A DNA stretch of 41,250 nucleotides from a virus (IMGVR_UViG_3300017913_000707:1-41250); one strand, 5' to 3'. Positions 2,537 through 27,556 are shown, counted from the first letter of the stretch. Notes: generated by a model not told the origin, from the letters alone. Numbers and translations are program-made.

Positions 2537-2970
2537 TTTCTAGCCTTCTCGATGGTTCTACCAGCGAAGTATGCACCAAATGCTGTTAGCATAAGTATCT
2601 CCAACAAAGATACGTAACTGTCTTTTACGTTAAATGGCAGCTCATCTAAGCTGTCTAACACCATGGTAATCATGAACATGGACATCAAAGCTATAAGCGT
2701 TACAGGACGAATCAGTTTCGCCAGCTTGACATCGCTACCCATATCTGCTTTCCATCTCTCAGTAACGTTTGCTTGGTAAGCAACCTCTGCATCTACGCGT
2801 GCCTTGATCTCTGCGGGGTCAAGCTCTGTTGTGTTCTCCAACAGACTCTTCACCACACCGAGGGCTCCTCGATCTGGAAGCAAGTCCCCAGCTACGTCGA
2901 GAACAGAAGGGGCTTTCTCTTTCAACCAAGCACCAAGGCCAGTGTCTTTAATTTTCTTTTCCTCTTTCAT
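2533..2970 (-). CDS. Holin, GTA/3TM-holin family
   Basis: RWKADMGSDVKLAKLIRP motif followed by TM helices and FGAYFAGRTIEK, characteristic of the 3-TM holin family. Confidence 0.8.
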   Translation of the reverse strand: MKEEKKIKDTGLGAWLKEKAPSVLDVAGDLLPDRGALGVVKSLLENTTELDPAEIKARVDAEVAYQANVTERWKADMGSDVKLAKLIRPVTLIALMSMFMITMVLDSLDELPFNVKDSYVSLLEILMLTAFGAYFAGRTIEKARK

Positions 2971-5900
2971 CGTCTAGGTCTTTCAGGTTTGGGAGGAGTG
3001 ATGGGTCTGTATCGACCAGCAAAGATCCCCTCTGCTTGTTTCTTGCTCACCCGTGTGTACTTCTGAATCGTCTGGATGATGTCTTTCTTACTTACTCCAA
3101 GTCTGTTAGCAGACATTGCGAACTCATGCATCTCCTCTTGAATCTCTCTGTACGCATCGCGAGCCTGACCGAAATCCTTGTATTTCAGTGAGTTAGCTTG
3201 ATACAGCCTGTCTTTATATTTTATCATAGTGAATCCAAGCTGCTGATTGATATCAACATTGTATGGTTTAAAACCTGTGAGCTGACCACCAATCTCTTCT
3301 TTACTTCCTCCTGAGTTGTAAATCTTGCGAAGGGATGTGAATGTTCCGGGCTCAATCACCTCGTACATATACGACATGATGTCCTGCATCTGCTGAGTCT
3401 CAGGAGATTCTGGGTTGTATATGGGCTTTCCGTAGTCGTTGACGTTTCTGCTAAGGTTAATGAATCTTCTAGTCAAGATCTCTTCTCCGAGGAATGGCTC
3501 GATCACAGTAAACAAACCCTTGGCAAATGAGTCAACACCGTCTTCACCCCTCATAAATGAGTTGGCAATCTTGTCGAAGTGACCGTATGGGTCTGACGCA
3601 GATATATCAATGTAAGAAAACTTACCATCACCAAGATCGTATGGTATCACTCTTGAGTTCTGACTCCATGGAGCCATGAACTTGCGGAGGTCGTTCTGTC
3701 TCTGATCCTCACCTTCATCATCCATGCCCTTGCCAATAACCCCCATAACGCCCGCACCAACTGCTTTTCCGTATATTCCTGTTACCGCAGCCTTTGCTGA
3801 GGCGTAGCTCGCAGCACCTGCAAGTCTTTGCGCTCCAATCTTTCTGATCTCAGGATTGTCCGACTTGATTTCTGAAATGCCCTGAGCCATAGTATTCCAA
3901 GCAACCCTGTATGATTCGGCTTGGAAAGACACGAAGTTCCCCATGAATGGGAATCGACGAATCATCTGAATCGCCTCAGGCACACGGCTGTATGTCGGGT
4001 AGGTATTCTTCACTACCTCAGCCACGTAAGCATCAAGCTCAGCCGCCTGTTCTGTAGTCAGTTGGTCTGCCTCCACACCAAACTGAGCTTTGGCGTAACG
4101 GTTTCTCTCGTTCTCAAAGGCGACAATCTTAAAGAAGTCATCTTCTGCTTGATACAGATTCTCAATCTTCTTCATTCCCACCCGAGCCTTCCTCAAAATG
4201 TTTTTGCTCTTGCTCAGGTTCTCGTTGTTCATCCTGTTGGCCAAGGCGCTATCCATGTTAGCATCCTTGAACATGTCCCTGATCTCACCGAGTGCAGCAC
4301 TTTGCTTTACAATGCCAAGCTCAATGTACTTATTCATTCGATCCTGAGCAACTTTGTCTCTTGCTCTCTGATCTATTCCAAGAAGCTTACGTGCTTTACT
4401 TTCTATGTAAAGGTCGGCTCTAAGAGTTTTGTATGATTCGTTAAGTTGAGTCAGGTCGTAGTGACCGTTAGCCCACATGAATCCGAGGTTACCCAGAACG
4501 TTCTTAGAGTGCGTACCAACAGATCCAATGGTCTTAGCCCACTTGACAGCACCAATAGCTTTCATGTACTTCTTCATGAAGCCAGACATTTGCTCTGGCA
4601 CCTTGTTGAACTCGGCTGCAATCTCAGGCGTGGTGTACATCCCGTTGAGTGGAGCCATAGCCTCGCTACCCTCTGATGCAATCTGAACTGAGTTCCTTCC
4701 TGTTGGCTTTTCAAACAACCAAACACCCTTCCCGCTTTCCTTGACGTTGTTCAGGAACTTAGCCCCTTCTGCTGTCTGAGCCATCTTCAATACCGAAGCC
4801 GCATAGTTCTGTGCAGGGTCTGTATATTCACCCATAAGAGCTAGGATCTCCTTAGGGATGTCCTTTCTCTGCTTGAGAATGTTTGTGTTCTTTGTATCAC
4901 TGGCAGCAGATGCAAATGCAGCAGCCTCCTGTGGATCAAGGTACTTGTTCATCAAGCCCTCTACTCTTTTCTCCAAGAAAGCTTCGGCATCTAGGCCCTC
5001 GGGGTTGAGATCTGGGTCGAGGTAGTCAGTCATGGCCATCTCCCTGTTCTGCTCTCTCAAGAAGTTGCGAGCCTCGTTCTTAACCTCCTCACTAACCTTG
5101 TTCTTCCAGTCCTTGTTGCTGAACACCTCAAAGGATCTTGTCAGGTACTGACCAAGGTTTCCGATAACCTTGTCTATCTGGGAATCAGGCACTACACCCA
5201 AGTTGATTAGATCAATACTCAATCTATCAATCTGGTTTCTCATCTCTTGAGCCAACCCAGCAAACTCTTCGGGCAGTCTATTCAGTCCCTCTCCACCACG
5301 CAACGCATCGTCGAAGTCAGCAAGCAACTGATTCTGATCTCCCTGATACCCCTTGAAGAGTCTGTTGAACTCTCGGATATTTTGCTGGGCAATGTTGGTT
5401 TGCTTGGAGATGTTGGCTTCTCTCTGCTCACGTGCAGCAAACATACTCTTAGGCATGAAGCTACGAGCTGAGAAGAATCGACGACGGAGTCCGTCAAGCT
5501 TTGATCTGATACCTTCACCCTTTACATACACACCTTCTTCTTGAAGCTTACGTGCGTACTCTTCTGGATTTATCTGAGGCCCTTGAGCGGGGGAAGGCTC
5601 ACTTATTGGTTCCGCTTCAGCTGCTGGCTCCGCTGTTGTCTCTGCTTCAGCTGCTGGCTCTGCCGTAGTATCTGTTTCAGAAACTTCGGGAACAGCTTCA
5701 ACAGGAGTCGTCTCTGCTTCTTTGGTCCTTTCCTTTTCAAGAATGATTCTAATATCATTCTCTACTTGAGTCAGTCTTGTTTGAGCAGCCATCGTGTCTT
5801 TGCCCTTAAGCATCTGACGATCCATCTCCAGATCAATCAATCTAGATCTATCTTCTTCCGAGATATCTTTTGGAAGGTCTTTAGCAATGGCAGCCCTCTT

Positions 5901-7382
5901 CTTCTTGTTCTCAATCTCTGCCTGAAGCTCTGCGTCATTGTTAACCTCGATGTTTACCTGACTGACTTCATCGTCTGACAAGTCCTCCACGAGTTCTGAT
6001 GCCTGCTTCTTGCTTACTGCACCACCATTCACCTTGTAGGTTCCTGCGTCCTGAAGGGCTGCTGAAGCCAAAGTAACAGGAGTACCGATGACACCAACAG
6101 AACCCTCCATCAAGGCCTCGGACACATCCACCTCTTGTCCCGATGCAGCCTGAGCGAGCAGTTCACCAGCTACGCCAGTTCCCGCCTCTCCTGCTGCAGT
6201 TTGAGTTGCGATACGTGCTTGGGTCTTGCCTGCAACCTTAGCCGCTTTAGCCCCCTTTGACAACACAGCACCACCAAAACTGTCCACCAATCCAATAGTC
6301 CCCGATCGAAGTGCAGATCTCTTTCTAAGCTCACGAAGCTTAGACTCATCTTGAAGGATGGGGGCTACGTTCTCGTATGTGAAATCCTTCTCTCCAAGCT
6401 CCTCTCTGAGGAAGTCAACAAATGACATACCCATCTCTACAGTAGCACCAGCCATTCCCATTGCTGGGGTCAAGCTTAAGCCAAGACCAGCAAGAGCTCC
6501 AGCTCCAGAAGTTACTGGGGCAAGTGGACCCCCAACCAACCCTGCAGTAGCTCCAGCCCCTGTCCCAGCAACCACTGTGCCGAGGGCCTTCTCTGCAGAC
6601 GCTCTATTGAGCATGCCCGACGTAGAGCTAAGGAGTGTCTCGGCCATACCCTGAGGGTGCTCGTATGCGGCAGAAAGAAAGCCCCATACACCACCACCAT
6701 TTGCCTCCTTTGTTGCTGCGAAAGACTCGGCCTCATCGGAGACTCCGATCTCTCTCATGCGGTTGTCGTAATCAGTTACTTGATTAACAAGGGCTTGGAT
6801 GTTTTCTTCTGTAGGGCTAACGTCCCCAACAGCCATTGAGAAAGAGAAAGGCACGAGGTCTCCTGTAGCCTGACCCTGACCCCACGCTCTAGCAGCGTCA
6901 TCGAACACATCACCAATACCGGGAATAGCATTCACCATGTCCCCGAACTTACCGTCGAGGTACTGAGTTTCAGCACCTTCCACCTCTACACCTACAATAG
7001 GGAGGGGGGCTAGCGGAAGTCTATCAGCGCTTACTGTAACTGAACCCGAATCTCCACTCGGCTGTTCTTGAGTCTGACTCGTATCTGAGGTAGACTCCGT
7101 AGAAACCTCGTCCGAAACTGGCGCCGAGAGAGGCTGTGCGGTTCTTGCCCCAAATTGAACGGGAGGTAGATCCGCCTTCTCTTTTTTTTTTACGTCGAAG
7201 ATTGTTTCGTAGAACTTATCCTCGGCGATATTGGTGCTGATCACATCGTTCTCGATCAGAAAACCATACAACTGCTTCTGCTTCTCGGGTCTTGAGAAGT
7301 TGGTTGTAAAATCGTCGTATGATTTAGAGATGAGATCTCTCTCAACCATAAGATCGTATAGCTGCTTATGCTTTTCGTTCAT
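2967..7382 (-). CDS. Large internal virion/DNA-ejection protein, 1471 aa
   Basis: Last and largest of three genes after the tail module. Has a duplicated N-terminal KQLY motif, Gly/Ala-rich membrane-like segments (about aa 265-445), a Pro/Glu linker and a helical C-terminal region with PTYSRVP..IRRFPFMGNFVSF. No DxDxD RNAP motif seen. Confidence 0.65.
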   Translation of the reverse strand: MNEKHKQLYDLMVERDLISKSYDDFTTNFSRPEKQKQLYGFLIENDVISTNIAEDKFYETIFDVKKKEKADLPPVQFGARTAQPLSAPVSDEVSTESTSDTSQTQEQPSGDSGSVTVSADRLPLAPLPIVGVEVEGAETQYLDGKFGDMVNAIPGIGDVFDDAARAWGQGQATGDLVPFSFSMAVGDVSPTEENIQALVNQVTDYDNRMREIGVSDEAESFAATKEANGGGVWGFLSAAYEHPQGMAETLLSSTSGMLNRASAEKALGTVVAGTGAGATAGLVGGPLAPVTSGAGALAGLGLSLTPAMGMAGATVEMGMSFVDFLREELGEKDFTYENVAPILQDESKLRELRKRSALRSGTIGLVDSFGGAVLSKGAKAAKVAGKTQARIATQTAAGEAGTGVAGELLAQAASGQEVDVSEALMEGSVGVIGTPVTLASAALQDAGTYKVNGGAVSKKQASELVEDLSDDEVSQVNIEVNNDAELQAEIENKKKRAAIAKDLPKDISEEDRSRLIDLEMDRQMLKGKDTMAAQTRLTQVENDIRIILEKERTKEAETTPVEAVPEVSETDTTAEPAAEAETTAEPAAEAEPISEPSPAQGPQINPEEYARKLQEEGVYVKGEGIRSKLDGLRRRFFSARSFMPKSMFAAREQREANISKQTNIAQQNIREFNRLFKGYQGDQNQLLADFDDALRGGEGLNRLPEEFAGLAQEMRNQIDRLSIDLINLGVVPDSQIDKVIGNLGQYLTRSFEVFSNKDWKNKVSEEVKNEARNFLREQNREMAMTDYLDPDLNPEGLDAEAFLEKRVEGLMNKYLDPQEAAAFASAASDTKNTNILKQRKDIPKEILALMGEYTDPAQNYAASVLKMAQTAEGAKFLNNVKESGKGVWLFEKPTGRNSVQIASEGSEAMAPLNGMYTTPEIAAEFNKVPEQMSGFMKKYMKAIGAVKWAKTIGSVGTHSKNVLGNLGFMWANGHYDLTQLNESYKTLRADLYIESKARKLLGIDQRARDKVAQDRMNKYIELGIVKQSAALGEIRDMFKDANMDSALANRMNNENLSKSKNILRKARVGMKKIENLYQAEDDFFKIVAFENERNRYAKAQFGVEADQLTTEQAAELDAYVAEVVKNTYPTYSRVPEAIQMIRRFPFMGNFVSFQAESYRVAWNTMAQGISEIKSDNPEIRKIGAQRLAGAASYASAKAAVTGIYGKAVGAGVMGVIGKGMDDEGEDQRQNDLRKFMAPWSQNSRVIPYDLGDGKFSYIDISASDPYGHFDKIANSFMRGEDGVDSFAKGLFTVIEPFLGEEILTRRFINLSRNVNDYGKPIYNPESPETQQMQDIMSYMYEVIEPGTFTSLRKIYNSGGSKEEIGGQLTGFKPYNVDINQQLGFTMIKYKDRLYQANSLKYKDFGQARDAYREIQEEMHEFAMSANRLGVSKKDIIQTIQKYTRVSKKQAEGIFAGRYRPITPPKPERPRR
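5611..5669 (-). repeat. 30-bp tandem repeat encoding (TTAEPAAEAE)x2 linker
   Basis: gcttcagctgctggctc at 5614-5630 and 5644-5660. Confidence 0.85.
7024..7191 (-). other. A10 slippery run (7182-7191) and overlapping -1-frame coding segment of 52 aa
   Basis: GTA AAA AAA AAA GAG. The -1 frame reads REGGSTSRSIWGKNRTASLGASFGRGFYGVYLRYESDSRTAEWRFGFSYSKR-stop (TGA 7024-7026) and has no start codon of its own. Confidence 0.55.
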
Positions 7383-7390
7383 TCGAATTG

Positions 7391-9019
7391 TTATTCAAAC
7401 AAGCTGTCTCCAGCCTTTGGTTGATTTGCAGAGGATGTAACATCTTGAACAGCCTTTTCAACATCACCCTTCGGGCCAGTTACCAATCCTTTCTGAAGCT
7501 TCTCGAAGGTAATTGTCTCGTCGTTATAAACCCTTCTGATTGCCTGAATGATCTGATCAACCTTAGGCTTATCGTTGATTCTGTCAAGCATGATTGTCTT
7601 GACCTTAGATCCTTTGTAGTTCAGGTTCATTAGAGCAATCTTACCGTTAGGCAAGAACACCAAGTCGCTCAAGTTCAGGTCAAACTGTTCTGGCTCAAGC
7701 TTATCTTCTCCAAGATCTTCCTCAAGGAAATAGATTTTATCTCTAAGATCTTTGGCTGCCTCACTGTTCTTGTTTTCGATATCTGCATACCTTCTATTGA
7801 GTTCAGCAAGATCCCTGTGCTCCTGACCAAAGTTCGGGTTGGGGAGCTGGATGGCTTCAGTTTCTTTAGTGTTCTTGGCAAGGCTACCCAAGGTGTATCG
7901 CGTTCCTTTGAGCTCTTCCTCATTCATGTCCTCCAAGTTCAACACCCTACCCATCTCGTCAAATGCAAGGAGCTGACCCTCTTTGAACAGGTGAGTGGCG
8001 CTAAAGCTGTACTCAGACTTACTGTCAAACTCATTTCTGAAGACCTGTCTGCCTCTGCCAGAACCACCATCATCGTCATCTTCCTTGTCAGGAAATCGAG
8101 AGGCCTCAACCATCTCATTGATAAGATCCTTGTTCTTATTATTGATGTAGTCTTCGTGAAGATTATATTCTGGGCTGTTTATGTCTGCAGTAATGTATGC
8201 AGAAACAAGAGCTTCATTGTCTCTATATCCGTCACCCCACAAGTTTTCAACTGCCCAAGCTCTAGCAGACGCTCCATCTTCATTATCTGAACCAGCGTTT
8301 ACAATTCCAGTAGCAGACTTTACTGCTCTTGACCTATCCCAAACGTTTTTGTCAAAAGATCTAACAGATTCACGAACAACAGACTCACCAATTTGAATGG
8401 CACTTCTTCCGTATCTAGATGTAGTCGGAGCTGCAAACGTAGAAGGATTAGCCCAACGTTCCCAGCTCTGAATTGGCGCCCAATCACCAACCTCTTCTCC
8501 TGTCTCTTGATCTACCTGTTTAAAGAAGACAGTACCATCAGCGCCCATGTAGGTTGTGATATCGTTTCCTTCAAACATCTGCTGAGCCATGATGCTACCT
8601 TGTGGAGTAGCTGCAGATTGCTGATAAACGGGTAGTTGTTCGTTGTATTTTGCAGCAGCCGCAGGGTCAGTAGCAATTTCATTGAGCGTCTCTCTTGAAG
8701 ACTGCACCTCTTTGCTGTTGTGTGCCGCATGAGTGTTAAACCAGTTGGCTATGTTCTGTACAGATTGACGTGCTGCCACAGGATCATCAATAGAGAAGTC
8801 ATAAATCTTCTCCATTTCCTGATTCATGTACGTTTTAAAGTGATCTCTCAGTGGGGGTATAAGCTTAGATATATCATACCCTTCTGTCTTGGATAGAAGT
8901 TTATCAGCAGCCTCTCTTCGAGACTTCATCTGATCCATGATCGCCTTCTGATCAGGACGGATCGCTGAGAAGTCTGCCTTCCCTATTTGCGGAAGTCTTT
9001 CTGTGTACGCTACAGCCAT
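7391..9019 (-). CDS. Putative internal virion/ejection protein, 542 aa
   Basis: Middle gene of the post-tail trio; helical N-terminus; TAATG-coupled to the upstream gene. Confidence 0.55.
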   Translation of the reverse strand: MAVAYTERLPQIGKADFSAIRPDQKAIMDQMKSRREAADKLLSKTEGYDISKLIPPLRDHFKTYMNQEMEKIYDFSIDDPVAARQSVQNIANWFNTHAAHNSKEVQSSRETLNEIATDPAAAAKYNEQLPVYQQSAATPQGSIMAQQMFEGNDITTYMGADGTVFFKQVDQETGEEVGDWAPIQSWERWANPSTFAAPTTSRYGRSAIQIGESVVRESVRSFDKNVWDRSRAVKSATGIVNAGSDNEDGASARAWAVENLWGDGYRDNEALVSAYITADINSPEYNLHEDYINNKNKDLINEMVEASRFPDKEDDDDGGSGRGRQVFRNEFDSKSEYSFSATHLFKEGQLLAFDEMGRVLNLEDMNEEELKGTRYTLGSLAKNTKETEAIQLPNPNFGQEHRDLAELNRRYADIENKNSEAAKDLRDKIYFLEEDLGEDKLEPEQFDLNLSDLVFLPNGKIALMNLNYKGSKVKTIMLDRINDKPKVDQIIQAIRRVYNDETITFEKLQKGLVTGPKGDVEKAVQDVTSSANQPKAGDSLFE

Positions 9020-10065
9020 TACTTAATCGTAATTTCCTGCTGAGGAACTTGGAACTGTGGCTCATCGAAATGACTCATCTTTTCGAGCGCATCCAAGAGT
9101 TCTTTAGGAGGGTTTTCCATAGCCTCAACAGCGGCCTTGAGCATGTTGAAGGCCATCATTGTATTCTCTGTCTGTTCTGGGTTAAGAACTGCTTCCTCTC
9201 CAGTGAGTTCTGCCTCCTTCTCCCCAGTCTCCTCGTCAATCAAAGCCTTCTTGTTGGTGTCGTGATTGAACTCTCCACCCGTCATGTAGATTTGATCGTT
9301 AAGCATGCCACCATTCTCCGCCAGCATCAAGGATGTGATGTCGTTCTGACTCAAGGTATCTCCAACAGCACCAATACCCTCGACAGCAGCCTCTGTTCCA
9401 GCAGCATATCCGAGAGACGCCGCCGTCTGACCTTCGCCACGAAGCGCCTCTTGGAGGGCTCTGTTTGCCATGATATTACGATCCGAAGTAAGCTGAGCTC
9501 TTTCAACATTAAGGTCTCCAACCTGCTGTTCTCTCAAGATGTTGGCCTGAGAATACTTTTCTGCCAAGTCAGTGACTCTTTGCTTCGCTTCGGTAGATTG
9601 CATGGCCGCCTGAAGTCCTGACTGTGCCATCTGCTGTGAAAGAGCTGGAGCTATATTCGCAATGGTCTGACCAGATCTTGTAGGGTCCATAACGCCAGAA
9701 GCAATAGCCTGCTGAGACATCGCAAGGTTCCCCTCTCTAAGATTCTTCATTGCCTCAGCGCTCTGACGCATCTGAAGATCAGCCAAGTCTCTTGTATCCT
9801 GCGTTACACCAAGCTTAGGTCCTGCCTGAAGCTCTGGACCTGTCTCGTATTGAAGCTCATTAAGTCTATTGAGAGCATCTTCTGCAATTTGCTCCCCCTC
9901 TTTTCTCTGCTTTCTTGCTTTCAATCCCTTAACCCCAGCCTGAGCAAGCTTGGTGCCTCCAGCAATAACCAATCCAAGAGTGATGGGGTCGATTGCTTTC
10001 TGAAGATATGGGAGGTCGGGCCCAAAAACTAAATAGTGTAGGAAGTCGTAGATAGCCTCGATCAT
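9019..10065 (-). CDS. Putative ejection/pilot protein (Ala/Gln/Gly-rich), 348 aa
   Basis: Start reassigned to ATG 10065, 5 nt after a TATATTTG box. IDPITLGLVIAGG hydrophobic N-segment, Q/A-rich helices, C-terminal AENGGM..GEFNHDTN..EAELTGEE. Confidence 0.6.
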   Translation of the reverse strand: MIEAIYDFLHYLVFGPDLPYLQKAIDPITLGLVIAGGTKLAQAGVKGLKARKQRKEGEQIAEDALNRLNELQYETGPELQAGPKLGVTQDTRDLADLQMRQSAEAMKNLREGNLAMSQQAIASGVMDPTRSGQTIANIAPALSQQMAQSGLQAAMQSTEAKQRVTDLAEKYSQANILREQQVGDLNVERAQLTSDRNIMANRALQEALRGEGQTAASLGYAAGTEAAVEGIGAVGDTLSQNDITSLMLAENGGMLNDQIYMTGGEFNHDTNKKALIDEETGEKEAELTGEEAVLNPEQTENTMMAFNMLKAAVEAMENPPKELLDALEKMSHFDEPQFQVPQQEITIK

Positions 10066-10068
10066 AGT

Positions 10069-10078
10069 TGCAAATATA
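10069..10078 (-). promoter_or_regulatory. Bacteroidota sigma-A -7 box (TAnnTTTG)
   Basis: TATATTTGCA-ACT-ATG directly upstream of the ejection-protein cluster. Confidence 0.75.
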
Positions 10079-10085
10079 GTTATTC

Positions 10086-11036
10086 TCACTTAGAATGGTC
10101 TAAGTCAGTTGGTTCGTAGTTTACGTTGAGTGAATAGAGTTCAAAGTTTTGATTGCCCAAGTTGATGACTGACTCAGCATACTGACCCCTCAAGAAGTCT
10201 CCATTGACAGAAGGGTCTGTTATTGCAAATACAGATATACCGCCTTGAGGATTGCTTTGGGCAGCGTCGATAAAGGCCTGAAGACCAGCAAGTGCTGACA
10301 TAGAAGCCTTGAAAACAATGCCCTCATTGACAAGAACTGAATCAGTGATGGCAGAAAGCTCTTCATTACTAGGCACTGTAAATCCAGAGCTCAGTGTATA
10401 GAAGTCAACATCCTGACTTATGTTCTGCTGATTACCGTCGGTGTCAAAAACCACAGGCTGCAAGCTTGATGAGGAAGCAAAGGCCAGCTTGGTAGAACCA
10501 CCAAAAGCAGGGGCTGCACCGTAAAGACCATCAAATGCATACAGATTATCCATTGGGCCGCCAATGGTCAAGAACGAAGTGTCCGCCTCGATTACACCAA
10601 TAAGCTTGAGGTTTACGTTGGGCTTGATTCTGCTGTCCTTGGGAATACTCCCGTAAAGAATACCACCTTTGTTAGACACAGTTCCAACCTGTATAGCCCT
10701 TGGAGCTTGATTTGGCTGCAAGCTATCGCTAGTAGAGAAAGTGTGAAGGGAGCCAGTTAGGTTCTCACTACCCTCAACACTAAACGTCTTATACAACTTG
10801 TTCTGAGATGGGTTGTCATTGAAAGACACCGATATAACAGAGGGGTACGGCGTACCGTAGAAGTTGTTGTTTTGGGTGTTTGTGTTGTGCTCCCAGCATA
10901 CAACATCGTCAGATGCCTCAACTCTCTTCCGTGAAGAAAAGAACTGCTTATCCATAGACGCATAGTTTGAAGACTCATAGTCGTACTTAGACGTCCATAT
11001 ATTCTTCTTGTCGTTAAAGGCTATTGTCTTCTTCAT
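10086..11036 (-). CDS. C-terminal moiety of the tail muzzle/stabilisation protein encoded as a separate gene, 316 aa
   Basis: Begins TIAFNDKKNIWTSKYDY and contains NNFYG..SVSFN..KLYKTFSVEG and GDFLRGQY, motifs I recall from the C-terminal third of crAss-like stabilisation proteins. Confidence 0.6.
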   Translation of the reverse strand: MKKTIAFNDKKNIWTSKYDYESSNYASMDKQFFSSRKRVEASDDVVCWEHNTNTQNNNFYGTPYPSVISVSFNDNPSQNKLYKTFSVEGSENLTGSLHTFSTSDSLQPNQAPRAIQVGTVSNKGGILYGSIPKDSRIKPNVNLKLIGVIEADTSFLTIGGPMDNLYAFDGLYGAAPAFGGSTKLAFASSSSLQPVVFDTDGNQQNISQDVDFYTLSSGFTVPSNEELSAITDSVLVNEGIVFKASMSALAGLQAFIDAAQSNPQGGISVFAITDPSVNGDFLRGQYAESVINLGNQNFELYSLNVNYEPTDLDHSK

Positions 11037-11038
11037 GA

Positions 11039-14000
11039 TTACTGATCTAGACCCAGTTCAAACGTCTGTGTAGCTGGATTAAATATGATAACCTTATTTG
11101 CTGGAATTACAGAGTTCAAAATATTTGTCAAGGTGCTTATGAATTCTGGTGTTGAGTCCCCCTCGGAGAAAGAATAAAAATTAGTGCTAAGATTTTGCTC
11201 CGAAAAATCAGCAAACCTTCGATCTCCAACATATGATGTGACGTGATCTGCGCCATCCTGAGCGGATACAAGGCCGCCACCTATTTCCCCGATTTCAGAT
11301 ATCAGGGATAACAAGTCTGCATTAGTTACAGAACCATCTCCGTCTATGTCACCCGCTAGCCCTCTGGCGTTAAAGGGTGTCCCACCAAATAATTGAGCTC
11401 CAGATGATGTGCCATCCAAGAAAGTAAACTTTGGTTGTCCTTCAAACCCGAATAGTCTTCCTGTTGCAAAGTTTACGTTGCTGAGTGTTTTCTCAAAAGC
11501 AAGATTTACAGCTTGGTTTACAGCATTAAGAGCCAAGTTAGCGGTTTGTTCTGGGTCAGTTGGTGCTGGATCATCACTCAAAGAAGCCTCAATAGCAGCA
11601 ACAAGACTAGCGTATGTCTCAGGACTAAGGATGTCTTGAGCCGTGCCTTGGAAGATAATAGGATTACCATCGAGAGTCGGGAAGGTCTGGCCGTTAATCT
11701 CTTGGTTTCCATCTTGAATAAAGCTATATCCGGAAGTTACATCTATTATCCTGTCGAGTGCCTTTCTTAGTGCATCATAGGAAGAGACCAGACTTCCTGA
11801 AGATGTGGTTTTAACTATACCTCCTGCAAGATCAGATGCAGTCAACCCATCACCACCTTCTCCAGTAAATCCAACGCCGTAAGAAACGGGGCTTGAAGTA
11901 TCGATTGTCAGCCCATCAGCTGTTAATGAAGTAATGTCATCTAGACTTTCAGATCCGAATAGCGCCTGAAACTCTCTCAATCTAGCGACTGCCTCTTGGG
12001 TATTCCCAAGTATGCTAGACAAAGCCTGATATTGTGGAGTTGAACTAAATGGTGCCGACAGTCCAATGTTCAAGTAGTCTCCTATTACAGAAACATCTTG
12101 ATTGTTTACTTGATCTGAAGAAAAGAATAATTCAGAAGCTAGCGGTGTAATTGCCGAAGTAACAAGAGCCTTAAGGTTTAGAATTTGAGTCCCAAGGTCT
12201 GTCTCAGCAGCTTGAATCACATTCTTAAATGAGCTGAGTCTAGCCTCAATCAAAGTAGAATCACTCTCAGGGTCTATAATATCCTCAAATTCAATATTTT
12301 CTAGCTGTGCACCAGTAACGGTAAGACCGCCAAAAGAAACAGCAGCAGTAACTGCGTCAACGGCATCTTTAATCTTTTGACGAAGCTCAGGCGTTATATC
12401 ACCCGTGCCACCAGTAATTGGGTCGTTAGGGTCAAAGTTTGTGAGAGCGTCCAGAACATTTGATACATTGCCAAAAAGATTTAGGAAGGTATCTCCAAGA
12501 CTTACTTGGGTTAGTGTTTCTCCATTGAGAGAATCTACAATTTCTTGACCCGTTGTTGGCGGTGTGCCGATAAGGAATTCGTAAAATGCTTCTGGTACAG
12601 CGTTAGCCCCAGTGTTTTCATAGGGCACGTCAATGCCAGCTATGTCACTCTGAATGTCATACGTGGTTTGAGCAGAGTTGTAAAGAGAGAACGCAAGCTG
12701 ATCCCTTACAGCCTCAAGAGCAATGGTTGTAGTAGTAAGGTTATCAACCTCGCCTTGGTAATCAGTTCTGTAGTTCAGAAGTCCACTCTCAATAAGGTTG
12801 AGAACATTGGTGTATGTTAGGTTATTACCCCCAATGATCTGTTCTTCTAACAGGGCGTAAGACGGATCATCTTGAACCGCATCATACAGGTTTTTGAGCG
12901 GGCTATCTTGAACCCCCTCTACTGATTCAAGGCCGTAGTCATCACCAAATGGATTTCTGCTTTGAGCGTTTAGATCTTCGAGCGGTGCGTTGAGTTCTGG
13001 GCCACGACCTTCGTAAGTGGCTGTAACGAATGCAGCAATCTGCTGAAGCAGATCCTCCTTTTCAGCGTTGATCTCATCAAGCTCACCCTTGATGTTTATG
13101 TTCTCCTCAATGATGTCATCAAAGCTGTTTGCATTGATGCTGTTGATGAGCCTAGTGAGGTCTGCGTTAAGACCATTAAACCCAACAAACTCATTGACGA
13201 AGTCTTCATTATCAAACAACGCACTACCCTCGGGGTGAATGCTTTCTGTAAATTCATCCTGCAACGAAACAGTTGTGGGGATACCATACCCAATTTCAAA
13301 TGTGATAACTTCGTTGTTGCTCAGATTAAACGACCCCTGAGTTCTATCGTATCTACCCACTGCAGGTTCGTTGATCGTAGTATCGTACTCTCTGATCTTG
13401 TCAACAAAAGCCTCGACAACACTTAGGTACTGGTTAAGATTAACCGTGTCACCCGGGCTGATACCCAAGTCACTGAATACAGATGCATTGAGGTTTGCAG
13501 GGAGATTAATTTCACTGGCGCTAACCGCCTCAGCACGAGGTGTACCGGGAGCGTAAGAGCTAATGAATGTCGATCCTTCAACGATGGCTGCTTGTGCTTG
13601 CTCAAGAACTTGAAGGTGCAGTTGCTCAGTAGCTTGAATCTGAGAAGCATTAGTGTTTGTAATGCTTGCGATCTCCTGCTCAAGCTCCGAGATATCTTCA
13701 TTGAGACTGTCAATGGCTTCGTCTACACCACCATCGGGCGGGTTGTTTACAGCCTCTCCAATAAGCGTATACAGATTCAGTATCTGCTGCTGCAGATCAT
13801 CAATCGTCTGGTTAGCCTCACTCAAAGAAACCTGCAAGTCACCAGCATCCTCAAGCAAAGCGTCAAGATCCTCCTGCGTAATGTCTGGAGGAGTGGGGAT
13901 GCTTGGGTCTGGCGTTGCAACACCCTCGCTCTGACGGAAGAACTCGCCGCCAGTGTATCCAATCCTAACAGAGTTGTGTACACTGATAACAAACTCATCA

Positions 14001-17000
14001 AGAACAGGATCATATCCACCAACCACACGCACTGTATTGGTAGCATCCTGAGCTTCTATGGCGGAGCTGAAGAGCTCTCTGAAGTATGACTTCAATCCAT
14101 ACTCAGAAATGATTGCAACACCATTCGCTGGGTTGAACTTGTATACCTCAAACTTTTCTTTGTTTGCAAAGTATATGCTCTCCCCAACCTTAGTAACTGA
14201 TTCTGGGTTGTCGCTACAACCATAGTCTCCCGAGTAGAATCTCTGAGTCCCCAAGGCCTTCTCAGAGGCTACGACAACGTCGCCTCCAACAGCATCAGAA
14301 AGAAGAGTTCTTGATACAGGGATGTCGCTAATCTTGTCCTCTTGAATTACGAAAACACTGTCCCCCCTGTCAACCATCTTCTGAATACTGCCGTGAGCGT
14401 TAGGAAGGTCCTTGAAGTTAGAGGTGGTTGCATCAAATGTGCAGTACCTAAGTCTAGGAAGGGCGTAGTTGTTTACATCACTAAACGTAATCGATGAGTC
14501 TCTACGAATCTCTCTTTGGAATCTGTTGACAACCTTAGGCTTGCCCCAGTTGTGTTGATTCGCACCAATGATAGTATCAGTAAACGTCTTTGTCTCCAAG
14601 AAGTAATCCAAGAATCTTGGGCCCGAACCCTCATCATTCTGAATGAGATTTATGTAGCTCCCGTTGTCGTCATTGAATCGAGGCATATTGACGGGCAGTC
14701 TCCTGAAGTACACATCACCCTCTGTAAGGACAATGTTTGGGTTTTCCCAAGTAAAGCTACCGTTCTCCTCAATTATGCTGTACTTCTTTCCAACCTCATA
14801 GTAGATTCTGTCTTCAGCATCTTGATTCTTGAGAGGAGAGTATATCTCAACAACACACCTACTGTTCCATCTGTGAGATGCAGAGTCAGGGTTTTGATTG
14901 TCATTAAGGATGCTGTCGCGAACGTTGTTGTAGGCAAACCCAACGGCGGAAGGATTGTTCCTCAGCACAAGGAACTGACCGACACACGCTTTAGGCAGTT
15001 CTGCATCAGGGTTTCTTAGTGGGTTCTCTTCATCGTCAGCCAGAGTTACTGTCTTTACAATGTCGAACTCAAATGCCTCGGGGAACACCCTTGCAGCAAG
15101 CTCGTCATCGAGGCCCGAGAGAGAACCAAAGTATGAGATTATCCTAAGCTTGTCACCGTCCTTAAACGTGTACATGTCCTGAGCACCATCGTAATTGATG
15201 GCACCAAATGCACCCGAGTAAGAAACCTTGCTGTTGTTCTGAAGGTAGTTCAGAGAAACGTAGATGTTTCCATTGCCGTCAGGATCGTCAGAGTCATACT
15301 CAACGAACGCTCCACCCGTGGTATACTGCACGAAGTCATCAACAGTGCTGTTACCCCCGTATACGAGCTGATAATTCCAAGCCCAAGATGGAGGGGTTAC
15401 GTTTTGTAGATTTACTTGTATTTGGACGGGACCCTTCTTTGGAAGAACATTGTAGCCGGGAACGTATACGCTACCAATCGGGACAACATCACTAGCTCTT
15501 CCTCTCTGGTCGTAGAATACAATGCCAAAGTCGTGATTCGCTTTGGTCTTGAAGGACTTGTATGGTTGATTCTCACCAGCTGTCAGAGGTGGGATCTGAA
15601 CTGTTTCAAAGTCTCTTACCTCAATGTGAGGATGCAACTCATCAAGAAGCTCGTCATCATCAGCAACTCCGTAGTCCGTAAAGTCTGATAGGGTGAGGTT
15701 GAGAGTGTTAGAGATGAGCGGCATGTTGTTAAGTGCAGCCCTTTCATTATTCAATGTAACCATCCCTCTGTCTGACCAAGGAGAAACCCCCATGAGAATA
15801 GTCTGGTAAGACACACTAGACATACCCTGACCAGAAGAGCTATCCCCCTGCCTTCCGCCAGCACCAGCCTCTCCATCAACGAAGCTAAATGCGTAGTCGA
15901 AGAACAGATCGTCCCTGTCAAAAATGTTTATCCCGTGGTTCTGATACGTATCCTGAGCGTAGTTATGAAAAGTGTTGATGAGTCTACCACCCGTGAAAGA
16001 GATAAATTCATTACCCACATCAACAAGTCCATCAAGAGCATCTTGAATACCTCCGCCGCTAAATGAACTTGTAATGAATCCTTCGAAGTCCTCAGTAATA
16101 GTGACAGAGGCTTCTGAGGGTATCAGGAAGCCCAGCCACCTCCTCATGTTCTGAGTGTTCTGAACACCCTTTTGACCCGCAATAGTTTCGGCAGCGTTGC
16201 TCTGAGCGGCAGCAAAAGCCTTTGCATAAGCAATTGGACTAGGACCTGCATCATATTGCTCTTGAGCAATCTCGTAAAGATCTGTAGCGTTAAGTGTGAA
16301 TAGCTGATCGAAATCAGCTTGAGTCATGTTGGGTACTTGGAACTGAATGAAGTCCCTAGTCATACACACCCACCCCTTAAGAGCTACGTCTCCACTTTCA
16401 ACAACAATTCCAGTAACATTCCCATTAGGAAAATCCATCTTGACATCTGGAACACAAGTAAGGATGTCAAAGTCCCCAATGTCGATAAGGTCCAGAGACA
16501 AGAACAGATCGTTTGGTCTGTCTTCGTCAGCGAGCTCAGGATCTGGGTTTGGATTTTCAATGGCGTAGAAATCACTTACATCTCTGAGCCTAAACTCTGG
16601 CTGAGCCTTGTTTACAATGAAGTAACCCATGGGCGCAGAGAACTGAGCTTGATCCTCAGTGTATAGTCCATCATACCTACCCACGGCGACAATAAGATCA
16701 GCTCTAGGGTCTACGCTACCTTGGACGTTTATCTTCTCAAGATTATTGATGCCAAGGTCAATCACATATGACGCAGTAGAAACTGAGTTTATGATTGAAA
16801 TAGGAGGGGTAGGATCTTCTGCAACTCCGTCAACGCCATCAACCCTCGTCGGAGGACCAAGAAGCATTGTCTTGATTGCATTAGTCAGTTCGTCTTTTGT
16901 GAGGTCGGCAAGGGTAACGAAAGACCCACTAAAGGTCATGCTCTTGCCCTCAATGATAAAAGGATTACCAGCATTGGTTCCATACACAGCCTTCTGTCCA

Positions 17001-18625
17001 GCAGACTCAAAAGCAGACTCGTCATCTCCAGCAAAAGAAGATCTCCACCTTGGAAGACCTGCACCAGCCTCCCCATCTAAAACGCCATCTCCATATGGGT
17101 TGAAGCAAACATTGGAACCTCTGGATCTGGCCACACCACTACCATTGGATGACAGTGTAAATGACTGATTAGACCCAAAGTATTGAGACCCATCAGGCTT
17201 AAACCCGTCTCCCTTTTGATTCAGTATGGCCTGAGCTTTACCTACCTCATCAAAGTCGTCGGCTTCACCTTGAAGCAAATTGAATCTTGAGCTACCGTGA
17301 TAACCCTTTCTTGACTCGTAGAAATGAAAGTGGTTGTCTGGTGAAACAGTGATGTTAAAAATCACTTGTGTGTTAGCGGCAACACCCTCATCAGGAAGCT
17401 GAGACGTGCTGAGCCTATAAGAGGCAACCCTGTTCAGACAAGCGTTTACATCCCCAATGGGAGAGTTCGTATTCCTCACCTCAGAGGAAAGGGTGAGGTT
17501 GAATGTGATAAAGTCCTGAGGTCTATCCAATGCCTCAAACCCCAAGCTGGCGTTTACATTAGGCACATCGAATCCCTCAACATAGTTTCCGTAGAAGAGT
17601 CTGTTGTTCGTAACCTCTTGGGCCCGAGCCTTCTTAGGTACAGAATCAAACTGCCTCTTGGCCTCCGCCTGAGGAAGTATCGTAAGGACCTTGTCATTAT
17701 AGAAGTCTATCTGAACACTACTTCCATCGTACTCAACTTCGTCTGCAACAAACCAAGGACCGAGATTGCCCTCGCGTACAAGCAGCCTTACCCTATCGAC
17801 TTCCGCTGTCAGTCCATTTGGTGGTATCTGAACAGCAAGGTAGTTTTCTGAAAAGAAGGATGCATTGGGTGAAGCACCTTGGTTGATGTAAGAAAGTGGT
17901 ACGTGAAGCTTTGAGTACGTACTGATTGCACTTACATCACCAGACTTATATATGTTTTGATATGCAAACTGGAACCCCTTCTTCCCCTTGAAGTTGCTTA
18001 CAGTTACAGATGGATCGTTTTGAAACGATGCTACGGGCGGGTCAACTGGTGTCCTCGGGCACGTAGAAATAAAATCTAGGAACCCAATGTCATCAGCATT
18101 CGACAATGCCTGACCCTCACTAGCTCTAGATACATCAAGCTTTCTTGGCTCGTTGATATTGTCAGTGAAAAACAAGATCGGCTTCACAGTGGCATCCCCT
18201 GATGAGTCAGAAGGAATGTATACTATGTTCGACTCCACAAAAGAGTTAGAGTCAAAATTGAAAAATGTAGACGTAAGAAGAGGAGTAACTTGATTGTCCC
18301 TCTTTGAGTAGCGATATACACCCTGCTCTGATGCTACAGCACTGTGGACGAAGTAATAAATGTTTTCATTTCTGTCGTCTACGCAGCTTCCAATGACTCT
18401 TCCATTGCCAGTGAAACTTACTGCTTCAGAGTTTTCAATAGCTGTATTGCCCTTTACAGGCTTAAGAACACCAAAGTTTCCGCTAGGGGAATCAATACCT
18501 TCTTTAGAGAAGTCATCGTAGTTGTCGTCAATGGTTACATTGACTGCATCGATCATTTCATCTTTGCCACGAACCCGTGCATCCTTGCTTGAGTTGAGCT
18601 TCCTTGGAAATACCTTATCAATCAT
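11039..18625 (-). CDS. Tail muzzle/stabilisation protein (P22 gp10-like, crAss-type) with a ~970-aa C-terminal extension, 2528 aa
   Basis: LNSSKDAR..DAVN, LFFTDNINEPRK, FQFAYQNIY, KARAQEVTNNRLFYGNYVEGFD, FGIVFYDQRGR, NFKDLP..GSIQKM, DYGCSDNPES, GGYDP. Follows the two ring-protein genes. Confidence 0.75.
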   Translation of the reverse strand: MIDKVFPRKLNSSKDARVRGKDEMIDAVNVTIDDNYDDFSKEGIDSPSGNFGVLKPVKGNTAIENSEAVSFTGNGRVIGSCVDDRNENIYYFVHSAVASEQGVYRYSKRDNQVTPLLTSTFFNFDSNSFVESNIVYIPSDSSGDATVKPILFFTDNINEPRKLDVSRASEGQALSNADDIGFLDFISTCPRTPVDPPVASFQNDPSVTVSNFKGKKGFQFAYQNIYKSGDVSAISTYSKLHVPLSYINQGASPNASFFSENYLAVQIPPNGLTAEVDRVRLLVREGNLGPWFVADEVEYDGSSVQIDFYNDKVLTILPQAEAKRQFDSVPKKARAQEVTNNRLFYGNYVEGFDVPNVNASLGFEALDRPQDFITFNLTLSSEVRNTNSPIGDVNACLNRVASYRLSTSQLPDEGVAANTQVIFNITVSPDNHFHFYESRKGYHGSSRFNLLQGEADDFDEVGKAQAILNQKGDGFKPDGSQYFGSNQSFTLSSNGSGVARSRGSNVCFNPYGDGVLDGEAGAGLPRWRSSFAGDDESAFESAGQKAVYGTNAGNPFIIEGKSMTFSGSFVTLADLTKDELTNAIKTMLLGPPTRVDGVDGVAEDPTPPISIINSVSTASYVIDLGINNLEKINVQGSVDPRADLIVAVGRYDGLYTEDQAQFSAPMGYFIVNKAQPEFRLRDVSDFYAIENPNPDPELADEDRPNDLFLSLDLIDIGDFDILTCVPDVKMDFPNGNVTGIVVESGDVALKGWVCMTRDFIQFQVPNMTQADFDQLFTLNATDLYEIAQEQYDAGPSPIAYAKAFAAAQSNAAETIAGQKGVQNTQNMRRWLGFLIPSEASVTITEDFEGFITSSFSGGGIQDALDGLVDVGNEFISFTGGRLINTFHNYAQDTYQNHGINIFDRDDLFFDYAFSFVDGEAGAGGRQGDSSSGQGMSSVSYQTILMGVSPWSDRGMVTLNNERAALNNMPLISNTLNLTLSDFTDYGVADDDELLDELHPHIEVRDFETVQIPPLTAGENQPYKSFKTKANHDFGIVFYDQRGRASDVVPIGSVYVPGYNVLPKKGPVQIQVNLQNVTPPSWAWNYQLVYGGNSTVDDFVQYTTGGAFVEYDSDDPDGNGNIYVSLNYLQNNSKVSYSGAFGAINYDGAQDMYTFKDGDKLRIISYFGSLSGLDDELAARVFPEAFEFDIVKTVTLADDEENPLRNPDAELPKACVGQFLVLRNNPSAVGFAYNNVRDSILNDNQNPDSASHRWNSRCVVEIYSPLKNQDAEDRIYYEVGKKYSIIEENGSFTWENPNIVLTEGDVYFRRLPVNMPRFNDDNGSYINLIQNDEGSGPRFLDYFLETKTFTDTIIGANQHNWGKPKVVNRFQREIRRDSSITFSDVNNYALPRLRYCTFDATTSNFKDLPNAHGSIQKMVDRGDSVFVIQEDKISDIPVSRTLLSDAVGGDVVVASEKALGTQRFYSGDYGCSDNPESVTKVGESIYFANKEKFEVYKFNPANGVAIISEYGLKSYFRELFSSAIEAQDATNTVRVVGGYDPVLDEFVISVHNSVRIGYTGGEFFRQSEGVATPDPSIPTPPDITQEDLDALLEDAGDLQVSLSEANQTIDDLQQQILNLYTLIGEAVNNPPDGGVDEAIDSLNEDISELEQEIASITNTNASQIQATEQLHLQVLEQAQAAIVEGSTFISSYAPGTPRAEAVSASEINLPANLNASVFSDLGISPGDTVNLNQYLSVVEAFVDKIREYDTTINEPAVGRYDRTQGSFNLSNNEVITFEIGYGIPTTVSLQDEFTESIHPEGSALFDNEDFVNEFVGFNGLNADLTRLINSINANSFDDIIEENINIKGELDEINAEKEDLLQQIAAFVTATYEGRGPELNAPLEDLNAQSRNPFGDDYGLESVEGVQDSPLKNLYDAVQDDPSYALLEEQIIGGNNLTYTNVLNLIESGLLNYRTDYQGEVDNLTTTTIALEAVRDQLAFSLYNSAQTTYDIQSDIAGIDVPYENTGANAVPEAFYEFLIGTPPTTGQEIVDSLNGETLTQVSLGDTFLNLFGNVSNVLDALTNFDPNDPITGGTGDITPELRQKIKDAVDAVTAAVSFGGLTVTGAQLENIEFEDIIDPESDSTLIEARLSSFKNVIQAAETDLGTQILNLKALVTSAITPLASELFFSSDQVNNQDVSVIGDYLNIGLSAPFSSTPQYQALSSILGNTQEAVARLREFQALFGSESLDDITSLTADGLTIDTSSPVSYGVGFTGEGGDGLTASDLAGGIVKTTSSGSLVSSYDALRKALDRIIDVTSGYSFIQDGNQEINGQTFPTLDGNPIIFQGTAQDILSPETYASLVAAIEASLSDDPAPTDPEQTANLALNAVNQAVNLAFEKTLSNVNFATGRLFGFEGQPKFTFLDGTSSGAQLFGGTPFNARGLAGDIDGDGSVTNADLLSLISEIGEIGGGLVSAQDGADHVTSYVGDRRFADFSEQNLSTNFYSFSEGDSTPEFISTLTNILNSVIPANKVIIFNPATQTFELGLDQ

Positions 18626-19494: not shown

Positions 19495-20247
19495 TTAAAC
19501 TTGTGGGGCCGCCCCGTATTGAGTGAGGAAAGAGTCCCTAAGAGAGACACCAATCATCTTGCAAATCTCACTAACCACTTCTCCATAAAACTCGTATGGG
19601 AGATCAAAGGCTCTACAGTTTTGAGGAGAAGGGATTGTAATCCCCCCTGAGATAGAAGAAGCAGCATAGAAAGGCTGTCTCTTTGCATCAATTTCCCCCT
19701 TGGGAACTCCACCAACCTTTACCTCGAATCTAGAGGCAGGATCTCTGTAGTAGTTAATGTAAAGCTCGTCAGTAAGAGAATCGGGAAATACTTCAATCCT
19801 GTCTGATACAAGCGCAACAGGAAAGTCATCAGTAGGCTCAGAAAGATTGCTGTTTACAATCCTAGACATCTTCTCTGTATTGTATACCAGATCTACGCTA
19901 ACGCTAGAAGAAGTAAAGACAGAGATTATTCTGTTGCAGTTTTCAGGCTTCGCATATAAAACAGAATCTCCATAAAGAGATCTGTCATTGACCGATTGAA
20001 GCGTTCCGCTTTCGATGTAATCAGACAAATAGTTCTTGGCTCTGAGATAAACTGAGTCCTCACCACCCAAGTCAGCACCACTTCTTCTAAGTGCTTTAGC
20101 CTGAGTAGCATATTCGTAAATCTTTGTGAAGATGTTTGACTGTACCGCAGGAAGAAGTGAGTTAAACATCTCAGGAGTGATGAACCCCTTTTGATCTTTA
20201 TTCGCAATATCGCGTACTGTATTGTATACCTGAATTACGCTAATCAT
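19495..20247 (-). CDS. Tail ring/adaptor protein, 250 aa
   Basis: Start reassigned to MISVIQVYNTVRDIANKDQKGFITPEMFN (ATG 4 nt after a TATATTTG box). YYRDP and FDLP..ICKMIGVSLRD resemble crAss-like ring proteins. Confidence 0.7.
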   Translation of the reverse strand: MISVIQVYNTVRDIANKDQKGFITPEMFNSLLPAVQSNIFTKIYEYATQAKALRRSGADLGGEDSVYLRAKNYLSDYIESGTLQSVNDRSLYGDSVLYAKPENCNRIISVFTSSSVSVDLVYNTEKMSRIVNSNLSEPTDDFPVALVSDRIEVFPDSLTDELYINYYRDPASRFEVKVGGVPKGEIDAKRQPFYAASSISGGITIPSPQNCRAFDLPYEFYGEVVSEICKMIGVSLRDSFLTQYGAAPQV

Positions 20248-27082: not shown

Positions 27083-27556
27083 TTACTTTTTCTTTTTGCC
27101 TGCGCGGATCTTAGCAGCCTCCTTCTTTCCGAAAGCGCTGTTGACTCGACCCATAGCCCAAGCGTGCTGTGATGTCTTAGGTCTGTTGCCAGAACTCATG
27201 TAAGCAGCAAGGCCTCTCTTGTATACTTCCTTCTCGGCAGAATCAAGTCCAGCCATACCGCCCTTCTTGTACATGCGGACCTTCCCGCCCTTCTTCATCA
27301 TCTTGAAGTCAGCACCAGAAATCTTTCCGTCTTTGTTTTTGTCGAGGGCCTTTTGCTTTTTGGTAAGACCCCCCTTAGACATTTTCTGAGGAACAGACTT
27401 GGCGCCCTTCTTTTTCTTGCCGTAGTCTTTCTTGTCTGGTTCTGCAAACTCTGGTGTGCCTTTTGAGCTTGACGCAGACAACCCTTTCAGAAAAACTGAA
27501 ATCTTGCTCGGGCGCTTCTTTGTTGTGCCCCCCTTGTTATACTTTTTTACTTTCAT
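27083..27556 (-). CDS. Highly basic protein with xxGG repeats, an EF-hand-like loop and a DUF5824-like C-terminus
   Basis: YNKGG, MSKGG, MKKGG, YKKGG; DKNKDGKISGAD; VYKRGLAAY..RP..QHAWAMGRVNS. Confidence 0.6.
   Translation of the reverse strand: MKVKKYNKGGTTKKRPSKISVFLKGLSASSSKGTPEFAEPDKKDYGKKKKGAKSVPQKMSKGGLTKKQKALDKNKDGKISGADFKMMKKGGKVRMYKKGGMAGLDSAEKEVYKRGLAAYMSSGNRPKTSQHAWAMGRVNSAFGKKEAAKIRAGKKKK

Follow-up and report, generated by a model that had tools for sequence, protein, structure and literature searches.

An overprinted -1 reading frame behind a homopolymer slip site in a large phage ejection-type gene, and its candidate short isoform

Introduction

Can a run of ten adenines near the 5′ end of a large phage virion gene divert part of that gene's output into a second, selected reading frame, and what might the resulting short protein do? 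We take up these questions for the gene of a 1471-aa ejection-type protein encoded in the virus record IMGVR_UViG_3300017913_000707, a stretch of 41,250 nt (68% complete) that we refer to as the window. A first-pass annotation had proposed that slippage at this run, A10, yields an isoform of about 119 aa in which the N-terminal domain of the large protein (N-domain) is fused to a tail rich in aromatic residues and Gly. We find that the -1 frame behind the run is under purifying selection and that synonymous change in the first frame is suppressed across it, which makes it an overprinted gene. We are highly confident that the 119-aa isoform is made, and we consider below how the frame is switched and what the product may do.

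Results

A slip site and an open -1 frame

The argument rests on the following features of the window.

2967..7382, minus strand: large third ejection-type virion gene, 1471-aa frame-0 product (PHROG 22602; third gene after the muzzle)
7194..7382, minus strand: duplicated helical N-domain common to both isoforms, aa 1-63 (four helices in the model of a relative)
7182..7191, minus strand: A10 slip site, GTA AAA AAA AAA G, codons 64-67, with two in-phase A_AAA_AAA heptamers
7026..7181, minus strand: frame-0 Ser/Thr/Glu/Pro linker carrying the overprinted frame (third positions vary in 11 of 33 core codons and in 299 of 321 body codons)
7024..7182, minus strand: overprinted -1 frame, a 52-aa basic Gly/aromatic tail (stop TGA at 7026-7024)

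The run appears as T10 on the plus strand at 7182-7191. No other A-run on the window's coding strand exceeds seven, and a second long run, A9 at 40108-40116 of the plus strand, is intergenic. A TAA at 7218-7216, eight codons upstream of the run, and the TGA at 7026-7024 bound the open -1 frame, which has 52 codons after A10 and would give a slipped isoform of 119 aa. The open stretch contains no ATG, GTG or TTG, and we rejected a separate start in this frame because no common start codon is available and the single ATT sits in a stretch missing from two relatives (L006 and L007). The first-pass annotation was thus accurate about the run and its codons, the 52-codon frame with its upstream TAA and lack of a start, and the duplicated N-domain and linker that flank the site. 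Its caveat that the +1 frame is open for a similar distance also stands as far as length is concerned (49 codons after A10).

In public sequencing data, contigs from four runs show no indel in A10, and one contig spans it fully. Given this, and the invariance of the run in orthologs, we rejected an assembly artefact as its source. Strain contigs list no variant from 7046 to 7247, and the two variants nearest this interval alter frame 0 while preserving a -1 Gly and the -1 stop (one contig, depth 3).

The -1 frame is under purifying selection

Our ortholog set comprised eight loci fetched with the frame-0 protein, six of them with the 5′ end; L002-L004 are near-identical. All six have an identical A10 context and an open -1 frame, and the run is invariant among them, yet its three Lys codons could each be AAG. 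The wobble position of the -1 frame falls at position 2 of the frame-0 codons. Among five sequences, the columns that vary at frame-0 positions 1, 2 and 3 number 137, 104 and 299 of 321 in the gene body and 36, 29 and 46 of 52 in the gene's second linker; over the entire overlap the figures are 10, 18 and 21 of 43, and in the overlap core (aa 85-117) they are 9, 16 and 11 of 33. Sliding windows in which position 2 varies at least as much as position 3 are rare (5 of 276) and all fall at aa 72-126.

A pair test on a wider sample used 16 non-overlapping pairs of equal-length overlaps, each locus entering once. Synonymous and non-synonymous codon differences came to 65 and 120 in the -1 frame, 39 and 140 in frame 0, and 28 and 156 in +1. 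On the last count we rejected the +1 frame as a product; open as it is, it is not the selected frame. We also compared 23 genes with a null in which the frame-0 protein was held fixed and its codons were redrawn 2000 times. The -1 frame contains 158 aromatic residues versus 101 under this synonymous recoding (z 7.6; above the null in 20 of the 23 genes), 108 alternating hydrophobic pairs versus 60.5, and 95 Gly versus 53, and its mean open length is 32 codons versus 12, longer in every one of the 23. For the window alone, the same null gives P(open) 0.007 and P(aromatics) 0.021. Two Gly are kept in at least 90% of 61 tails, which share 18% mean identity. The homolog alignment that the first-pass annotation had suggested as a check favours it, in the run and open frame of the six orthologs and in the retained Gly.

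These data bear on the reading that there is no functional second product, with the run lowering output of the long protein or serving as a DNA-level on/off switch and the aromatics arising as a by-product of Ser/Thr codons. Such a by-product is real: Ser or Thr after a T-ending codon gives Phe or Tyr in -1, and about 101 of the 158 aromatics are expected on this basis. Contigs with altered runs have also placed both -1 and +1 fusions in databases. We nevertheless regard this reading as very improbable, given the excess over the recoding null, the wobble pattern of the -1 frame, and the second linker, whose -1 frame is riddled with stops. The same tail is reached through independent slip signals (see below), five of eight fusion clusters looked up are singletons, and the contigs of four sequencing runs carry no indel in the run. 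Two other explanations of the constraint were rejected. The Lys residues as the selected feature are at odds with a T-run and with non-run sites among relatives, and a conserved RNA structure behind the low synonymous change is at odds with the lack of excess folding at A-run sites and with the position of the changes at the -1 wobble base.

The slip site and tail recur among relatives

We surveyed relatives by seeding on the muzzle N-terminus and taking the best 80 of 566 confirmed loci, of which 38 have at least 5.5 kb downstream and 30 show the start of the large gene. An A9-A11 run with the long open reading frame (ORF) in frame is present in 26 of the 30, and the slip site accounts for 26 of the 27 runs of at least nine A in the 511 kb surveyed downstream of the muzzle match. 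Among the remaining four genomes, L067 has T10 and L109 and L110 have short heptamers, each followed by a similar tail, and L073 has neither. A second survey of 65 further loci was seeded with a natural short protein (described below) and is biased, since one of its six patterns came from that protein's tail; a script found the run in 49, that of L197 lying inside the N-domain of a cut contig. Of the 16 loci without a run, a short site precedes an intact tail in four; the tail is degenerate in three that are near-identical and broken by a stop in one. Another locus is cut, and the last seven lack both site and tail.

The run is present in all nine cultured Bacteroidota-phage relatives examined. 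It is A10 with the gene in frame in elemoA (gp21), phi38:1 (gp101), Calle_2 and Gundel (gp074). In five others the run is A9, the long ORF is out of frame and GenBank splits the gene there: phi18:3 (L010, 8353), phi13:2 (L011, 8188), phi19:3 (L052, 2545), phi46:3 (L059, 23313) and Panino (L062, 23750). Illumina-sequenced Gundel, of the family of the four Cellulophaga phages, and L085, with the same flanks, have A10 in frame. The Cellulophaga phages were reportedly sequenced by 454. The Panino assembly used Nanopore reads alone (PMC11590407). The A9 splits in these five genomes are probably homopolymer undercalls, although phi38:1 has A10. The run is missing from three further phages, whose similarity to the protein is confined to the C-terminal half.

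As a separate observation, L020, L021 and L022 carry a tail near that of the window between unrelated N-domains and bodies, so that the run-plus-tail cassette is retained with swapped flanks.

Different slip signals lead to one product

Relatives without an A-run reach the tail by other signals. In L067, T10 (19733-19742) follows a very short N-domain, with the aromatic tail in the start frame and the long ORF in +1; a search for a second contig of this site found none, so it is represented by a single contig. An in-phase G_GGA_AAG is present in L166, L203 and L185/L187/L188, a motif that occurs once in 94,703 body codons, and the other short sites are NNA_AAG in L184 and L214, A_AAG_GGG in L109 and A7 in L110. 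A stem starts 6 nt past the site in six of eight non-run sites, and H-type pseudoknot scores reach p ≤ 0.05 against shuffles in 5 of these 8, in 3 of 21 A-run sites and in 1 of 21 control sites (Mann-Whitney p 0.005), a comparison weakened by the fact that the eight were chosen by eye before scoring. A profile built from A-run tails alone ranks the tails of L067, L110, L166, L184, L203 and L214 first in their own loci (E ≤ 0.02). The upstream and body proteins of the non-run loci are too divergent for a tree. The non-run sites look like ordinary -1 ribosomal signals (PMC5009743). The convergence of different signals on a single product is our strongest reason for thinking that this product matters, and together with the conservation of the run and selection on the -1 frame it supports the programmed switch that the first-pass annotation had proposed. 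We conclude that the frame switch is very likely programmed.

Bacterial RNA polymerase slips efficiently on nine A or T, with a 9-nt threshold (PMC5009743), and insertions predominate at A/T runs (PMC5574713), a bias that favours the -1 product. On A9 and A10, ribosomes slide weakly (PMC4363877). At A-run sites we observed no excess of 3′ structure (mean z -0.24; below -1.5 in 3 of 22, versus 6 of 22 controls), and wherever no pseudoknot was seen the run is 9-11 long. The window site itself has a minimum free energy z of -1.0, with a weak stem 6 nt after the run, and a pseudoknot score z of 0.1. Because A-runs lack a folding excess, their lengths fit the 9-nt threshold and ribosomes slide weakly on them, we lean toward a switch that in the window is mainly transcriptional, from A10 to A11, and to which ribosomal -1 shifting may contribute.

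The same 119-aa product could instead arise by tandem -1 ribosomal slippage on A_AAA_AAA, with the mRNA unaltered, a possibility that we take seriously while thinking it the less probable route, and one separate from the question of function. Two in-phase heptamers lie within A10, the weak stem begins at a 6-nt distance, and relatives reach their tails via G_GGA_AAG, A_AAG or A7 with a 6-nt spacer and predicted pseudoknot, G_GGA_AAG being highly shift-prone in E. coli (PMC5009743). Seven bases would suffice for such a shift, yet sites that lack a stimulator have runs of 9-11 and, as A-run sites, show no structural excess over controls; the long ORF of L067, in +1 behind T10, is moreover unreachable by a -1 shift (one contig).

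Composition and predicted fold of the tail

Across relatives, tails have a median length of 30 residues and a mean net charge of +5, and some contain Cys pairs. AlphaFold2 predicts for the window tail an all-β, amphipathic three-strand meander of strands 9-10 residues long (15-23, 27-36 and 39-48), with an additional, weaker N-terminal strand (predicted local distance difference test 75.6; predicted template modelling score 0.47). In the strands, residues of an aromatic/aliphatic face alternate strictly with those of a Gly/Ser/Arg/Glu face (ALAF/SGS, YVLY/FGYRE and AWFFY/ERGS), in keeping with the amphipathic β-strands of the first-pass annotation. Alternation of aromatic or aliphatic residues with Gly or polar ones is the pattern of membrane barrels. 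No helical transmembrane segment was found in the tail, which is predicted to be all-β.

Searches of Pfam, PHROGs, PDB sequences and Foldseek returned no family for the tail, the N-domain or the fused relative. The best structural match to solved folds has a Z of 5.9 (root-mean-square deviation 3.5, 52 aligned) and is tied with many unrelated sheets, and the best ESM Atlas score is 0.86. We rejected a lead to 'Phage_OMP' (PF24653; ESM Atlas 0.85, 14% of a cluster), which is below the tool's marks, has no Pfam match and bears an accession that we found in no paper.

Two suggestions of the first-pass annotation fared less well. It had likened the strands to those of outer-membrane (OM) barrels and to a signal for the β-barrel assembly machinery (BAM), and had considered an exclusion factor, which would be placed in the OM from inside. 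The BAM β-signal has an aromatic last residue; the window tail ends in SKR, and a terminal aromatic is present in 8 of 78 distinct tails. No Sec signal peptide was detected, the highest 12-residue hydropathy mean near the N-terminus being 0.41, and a charged helical domain lies there instead. We therefore rejected the reading of the isoform as a BAM substrate, and the same observations argue against an exclusion factor inserted from inside.

The composition of the tail also invites comparison with β-hairpin antimicrobial peptides and with the 'disruptins' of spanin-free phages. By this reading the isoform would be a lysis aid, a late cationic β-hairpin protein that breaks the OM from inside in phages that lack spanins. 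The net charge of about +5 and hairpins of aromatic strands, some with Cys pairs, would suit such a role, and the window has three small membrane genes and no recognised spanin-like gene. A lysis aid would have no need of fusion to the N-domain of a virion protein, however, and the isoform has no export signal; in a record that is 68% complete, the lysis genes may lie outside. We judge it improbable.

The N-domain and natural fusions

The N-domain has 649 representatives at E ≤ 0.001. We infer, weakly, that it is a packaging or ejection tag, because it also heads other probable virion enzymes. Five natural 107-aa proteins (P0061 and P0151-P0154) join the N-domain and a three-strand tail in one frame with no Lys run, and the AlphaFold2 model of P0061 shows four helices and a strand meander. 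This cluster is possibly a stand-alone gene or a lineage in which the short form is the default. The DNA of P0061 was looked for and not found; L150 is unrelated.

Separately, in L042-L044, L046 and L049-L051 (around 3001-3745) the N-domain heads proteins of about 247 aa that have no A-run and show weak, sub-cutoff SLT/glucosaminidase-like hits.

The ejection gene block

The large gene follows a crass-type muzzle and two smaller genes.

10086..18625, minus strand: crass-type muzzle, split in two genes (Pfam crAss_MUZ and crAss_MUZ_C above cut-off)
9019..10089, minus strand: first ejection-type gene, about 350 aa (position as phi18:3 gp120 and crAss001 gp45)
7391..9019, minus strand: second ejection-type gene, 542 aa (position as phi18:3 gp121, a virion protein by tandem mass spectrometry (MS/MS), and crAss001 gp46)

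The PHROG 22602 match (virion structural protein) spans aa 735-1449 of the 1471-aa product, whose C-terminal half is 26% identical to gp123 of Cellulophaga phage phi18:3, an annotated MS/MS virion protein. In phi18:3, three genes at the same positions as this block are annotated as MS/MS virion proteins, and in crAss001 the three genes at these positions encode cargo proteins (PMC10172136). The first gene of the block may be a positional analogue of α-helical OM-pore proteins; it has no family match, and no 19-residue transmembrane stretch exceeds the cut-off used. The second likewise has no family match and is assigned from position. Checking for virion RNA polymerase subunits in cargo genes, we found no DxDxD motif in the product of the large gene (record 68% complete).

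Discussion

A candidate part of the ejection channel

A packaged, OM-inserting oligomeric isoform that anchors the ejection channel or forms its pore is, in our view, the likeliest function, and we advance it tentatively; the oligomeric ejection pore of the first-pass annotation is thus a plausible role. Part of the gene's output would switch frame at A10, probably by RNA polymerase adding one A, and the shared N-domain would bring the 119-aa isoform into the virion as it would the long protein. Several copies could then join three strands each into a barrel or sheet whose aromatic face would meet lipid and whose Gly/Arg/Glu face would line the lumen, and the oligomer would enter the host OM from outside as anchor or pore. 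The ratio of isoform to long protein would be fixed by the slip rate. More doubtful, though conceivable, is the broader proposition that a large group of Bacteroidota podophages build a β-barrel OM segment of the ejection channel from a hidden protomer overprinted on their largest ejection gene and coupled to it by recoding that has moved between polymerase slippage and ribosomal frameshifting.

Several observations weigh against parts of this account. Many relatives have just two strands of about six residues, short for a bilayer, and the first ejection gene already occupies the position of the α-helical OM pores of T7, P22 and DEV (PMC11445570, PMC10172136). In phi18:3 the separately annotated N-domain ORF, gp122, has no MS/MS note and gp123 has one, a difference that could reflect removal of the N-domain or its absence from virions. 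The closest pair (the window and L001) has seven differences in the overlap, all non-synonymous in -1, and the A-run tail profile missed L109, phi38:1, Gundel and L185. Nor is the isoform universal: site and tail are both missing from 1 of the 30 muzzle-seeded and 7 of the 65 second-survey loci, which are not all independent, and the run is absent in the Crassvirales crAss001 and phi14:2. A stop interrupts the tail of L171 (near 6177) and that of L185 is degenerate. The isoform seems lost in some lineages, since L171 and L185/L187/L188 (near 6177) keep slip sites with tails decaying through an internal stop or lost Gly positions. As to the switch, given the in-phase A_AAA_AAA and weak stem of the window and the plain use of ribosomal signals by relatives, the transcriptional step is no more than probable.

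The short two-strand tails of many relatives would also suit a partner in assembly or in the particle that stays outside membranes, whether a linker like lambda G/GT, a plug of the tail lumen or a DNA-binding basic/aromatic peptide, and that adds strands to the sheet of another protein. Lambda-type -1 shifts set chaperone ratios and neither product is in virions (PMC5009743), and crass-type tails hold cargo in barrel and muzzle (PMC10172136). The wholly hydrophobic face, aromatic ends and low identity of the tails suit lipid better than a fixed protein partner, however, and separate small basic proteins (27083-28210) could serve in DNA binding. We consider such a partner unlikely, if worth keeping in mind, and continue to favour the OM-inserting isoform.

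Relation to known recoding and ejection systems

Recoding that gives two isoforms is already known from dnaX, tssM and lambda G/GT. The tau and gamma products of dnaX arise in Thermus thermophilus by transcriptional slippage on a run of 9 nt and in E. coli by a ribosomal -1 shift (PMC5009743). As in dnaX, a long frame-0 product and a short one have a common N-terminus here, and orthologs use a homopolymer or a heptamer with stimulators; the dnaX shift only truncates, whereas the phage virion gene has a selected frame of 17-52 residues. In tssM1 of Citrobacter rodentium, transcriptional slippage on A11 affects the membrane complex of type VI secretion (PMC4256274). Both cases involve poly-A slippage, two length variants of a part of an envelope-spanning machine and a ratio that matters. 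The long form of tssM1 needs the slip, though, and its short form is a truncation, with no overprinted domain.

Lambda G/GT and T7 gene 10 (10A/10B) are structural-operon frameshifts of the same type. Like lambda G/GT (PMC5009743), the site studied here is a conserved -1 switch in a phage structural operon that would set a ratio, and some relatives use G_GGA_AAG. Those shifts extend proteins near the 3′ end; here the shift comes early in a podophage ejection gene, close to its 5′ end, and the product is much shorter.

T7 gp14, P22 gp7, DEV gp73 and crAss001 gp45 are basic, hydrophobic OM-pore proteins proposed to enter the OM from outside (PMC11445570, PMC10172136). The candidate isoform is likewise encoded in a three-gene ejection block and is basic and hydrophobic. 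The gp14-type pores are separate first genes with helical membrane segments, unlike a hidden β-strand isoform of the third gene, and the window also has a gene at the gp14 position.

We found no description of a podophage ejection gene with a selected, overprinted β-strand module at its 5′ end in the literature searched, subscription papers and supplements being outside the search. The main texts of PMC8776804 and PMC11590407 do not contain the word 'frameshift', and PMC7886860 uses it once, of RNA polymerase genes. To the genes of abundant aquatic Bacteroidota phages our analysis adds one that is widely conserved yet unannotated, and it provides a candidate, open to testing, for the means by which these podophages cross the OM. 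It also describes a natural series: the same product is reached from a homopolymer run, from a T-run and from a heptamer with pseudoknot, in hosts for which few cases of recoding have been described. If the proposed function is correct, the ejectosome of these phages would have a part unlike the helical gp14-type pores and invisible to every annotation.

Genomic setting of the window

The window encodes a crass-type muzzle, a portal and a terminase. The nearest matches of the terminase are MW202828 (49%) and Elemovirus (41%), and those of the portal are Elemovirus, Pachyviridae and Pervagoviridae. Because the nearest cultured kin by these two proteins are Flavobacterium elemo phages, Pachyviridae, Pervagoviridae and the Maribacter phage Panino, the host is probably a Bacteroidota bacterium.

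Of the two muzzle genes at 10086-18625, one encodes 2528 aa and contains a large acidic insertion, and the other encodes the C-terminal part in 316 aa. Small membrane proteins are encoded by three genes at 599-1200 and 2533-2970, among them a PHROG holin; no endolysin or spanin was recognised among the window genes (record 68% complete). In the structural block, 27083-28210 encodes four small, very basic proteins, one in PHROG 7595, that are perhaps internal and DNA-binding. A gene for a GroES-like co-chaperonin lies near the terminase at 38895-39485, as in elemo, Calle and Panino.

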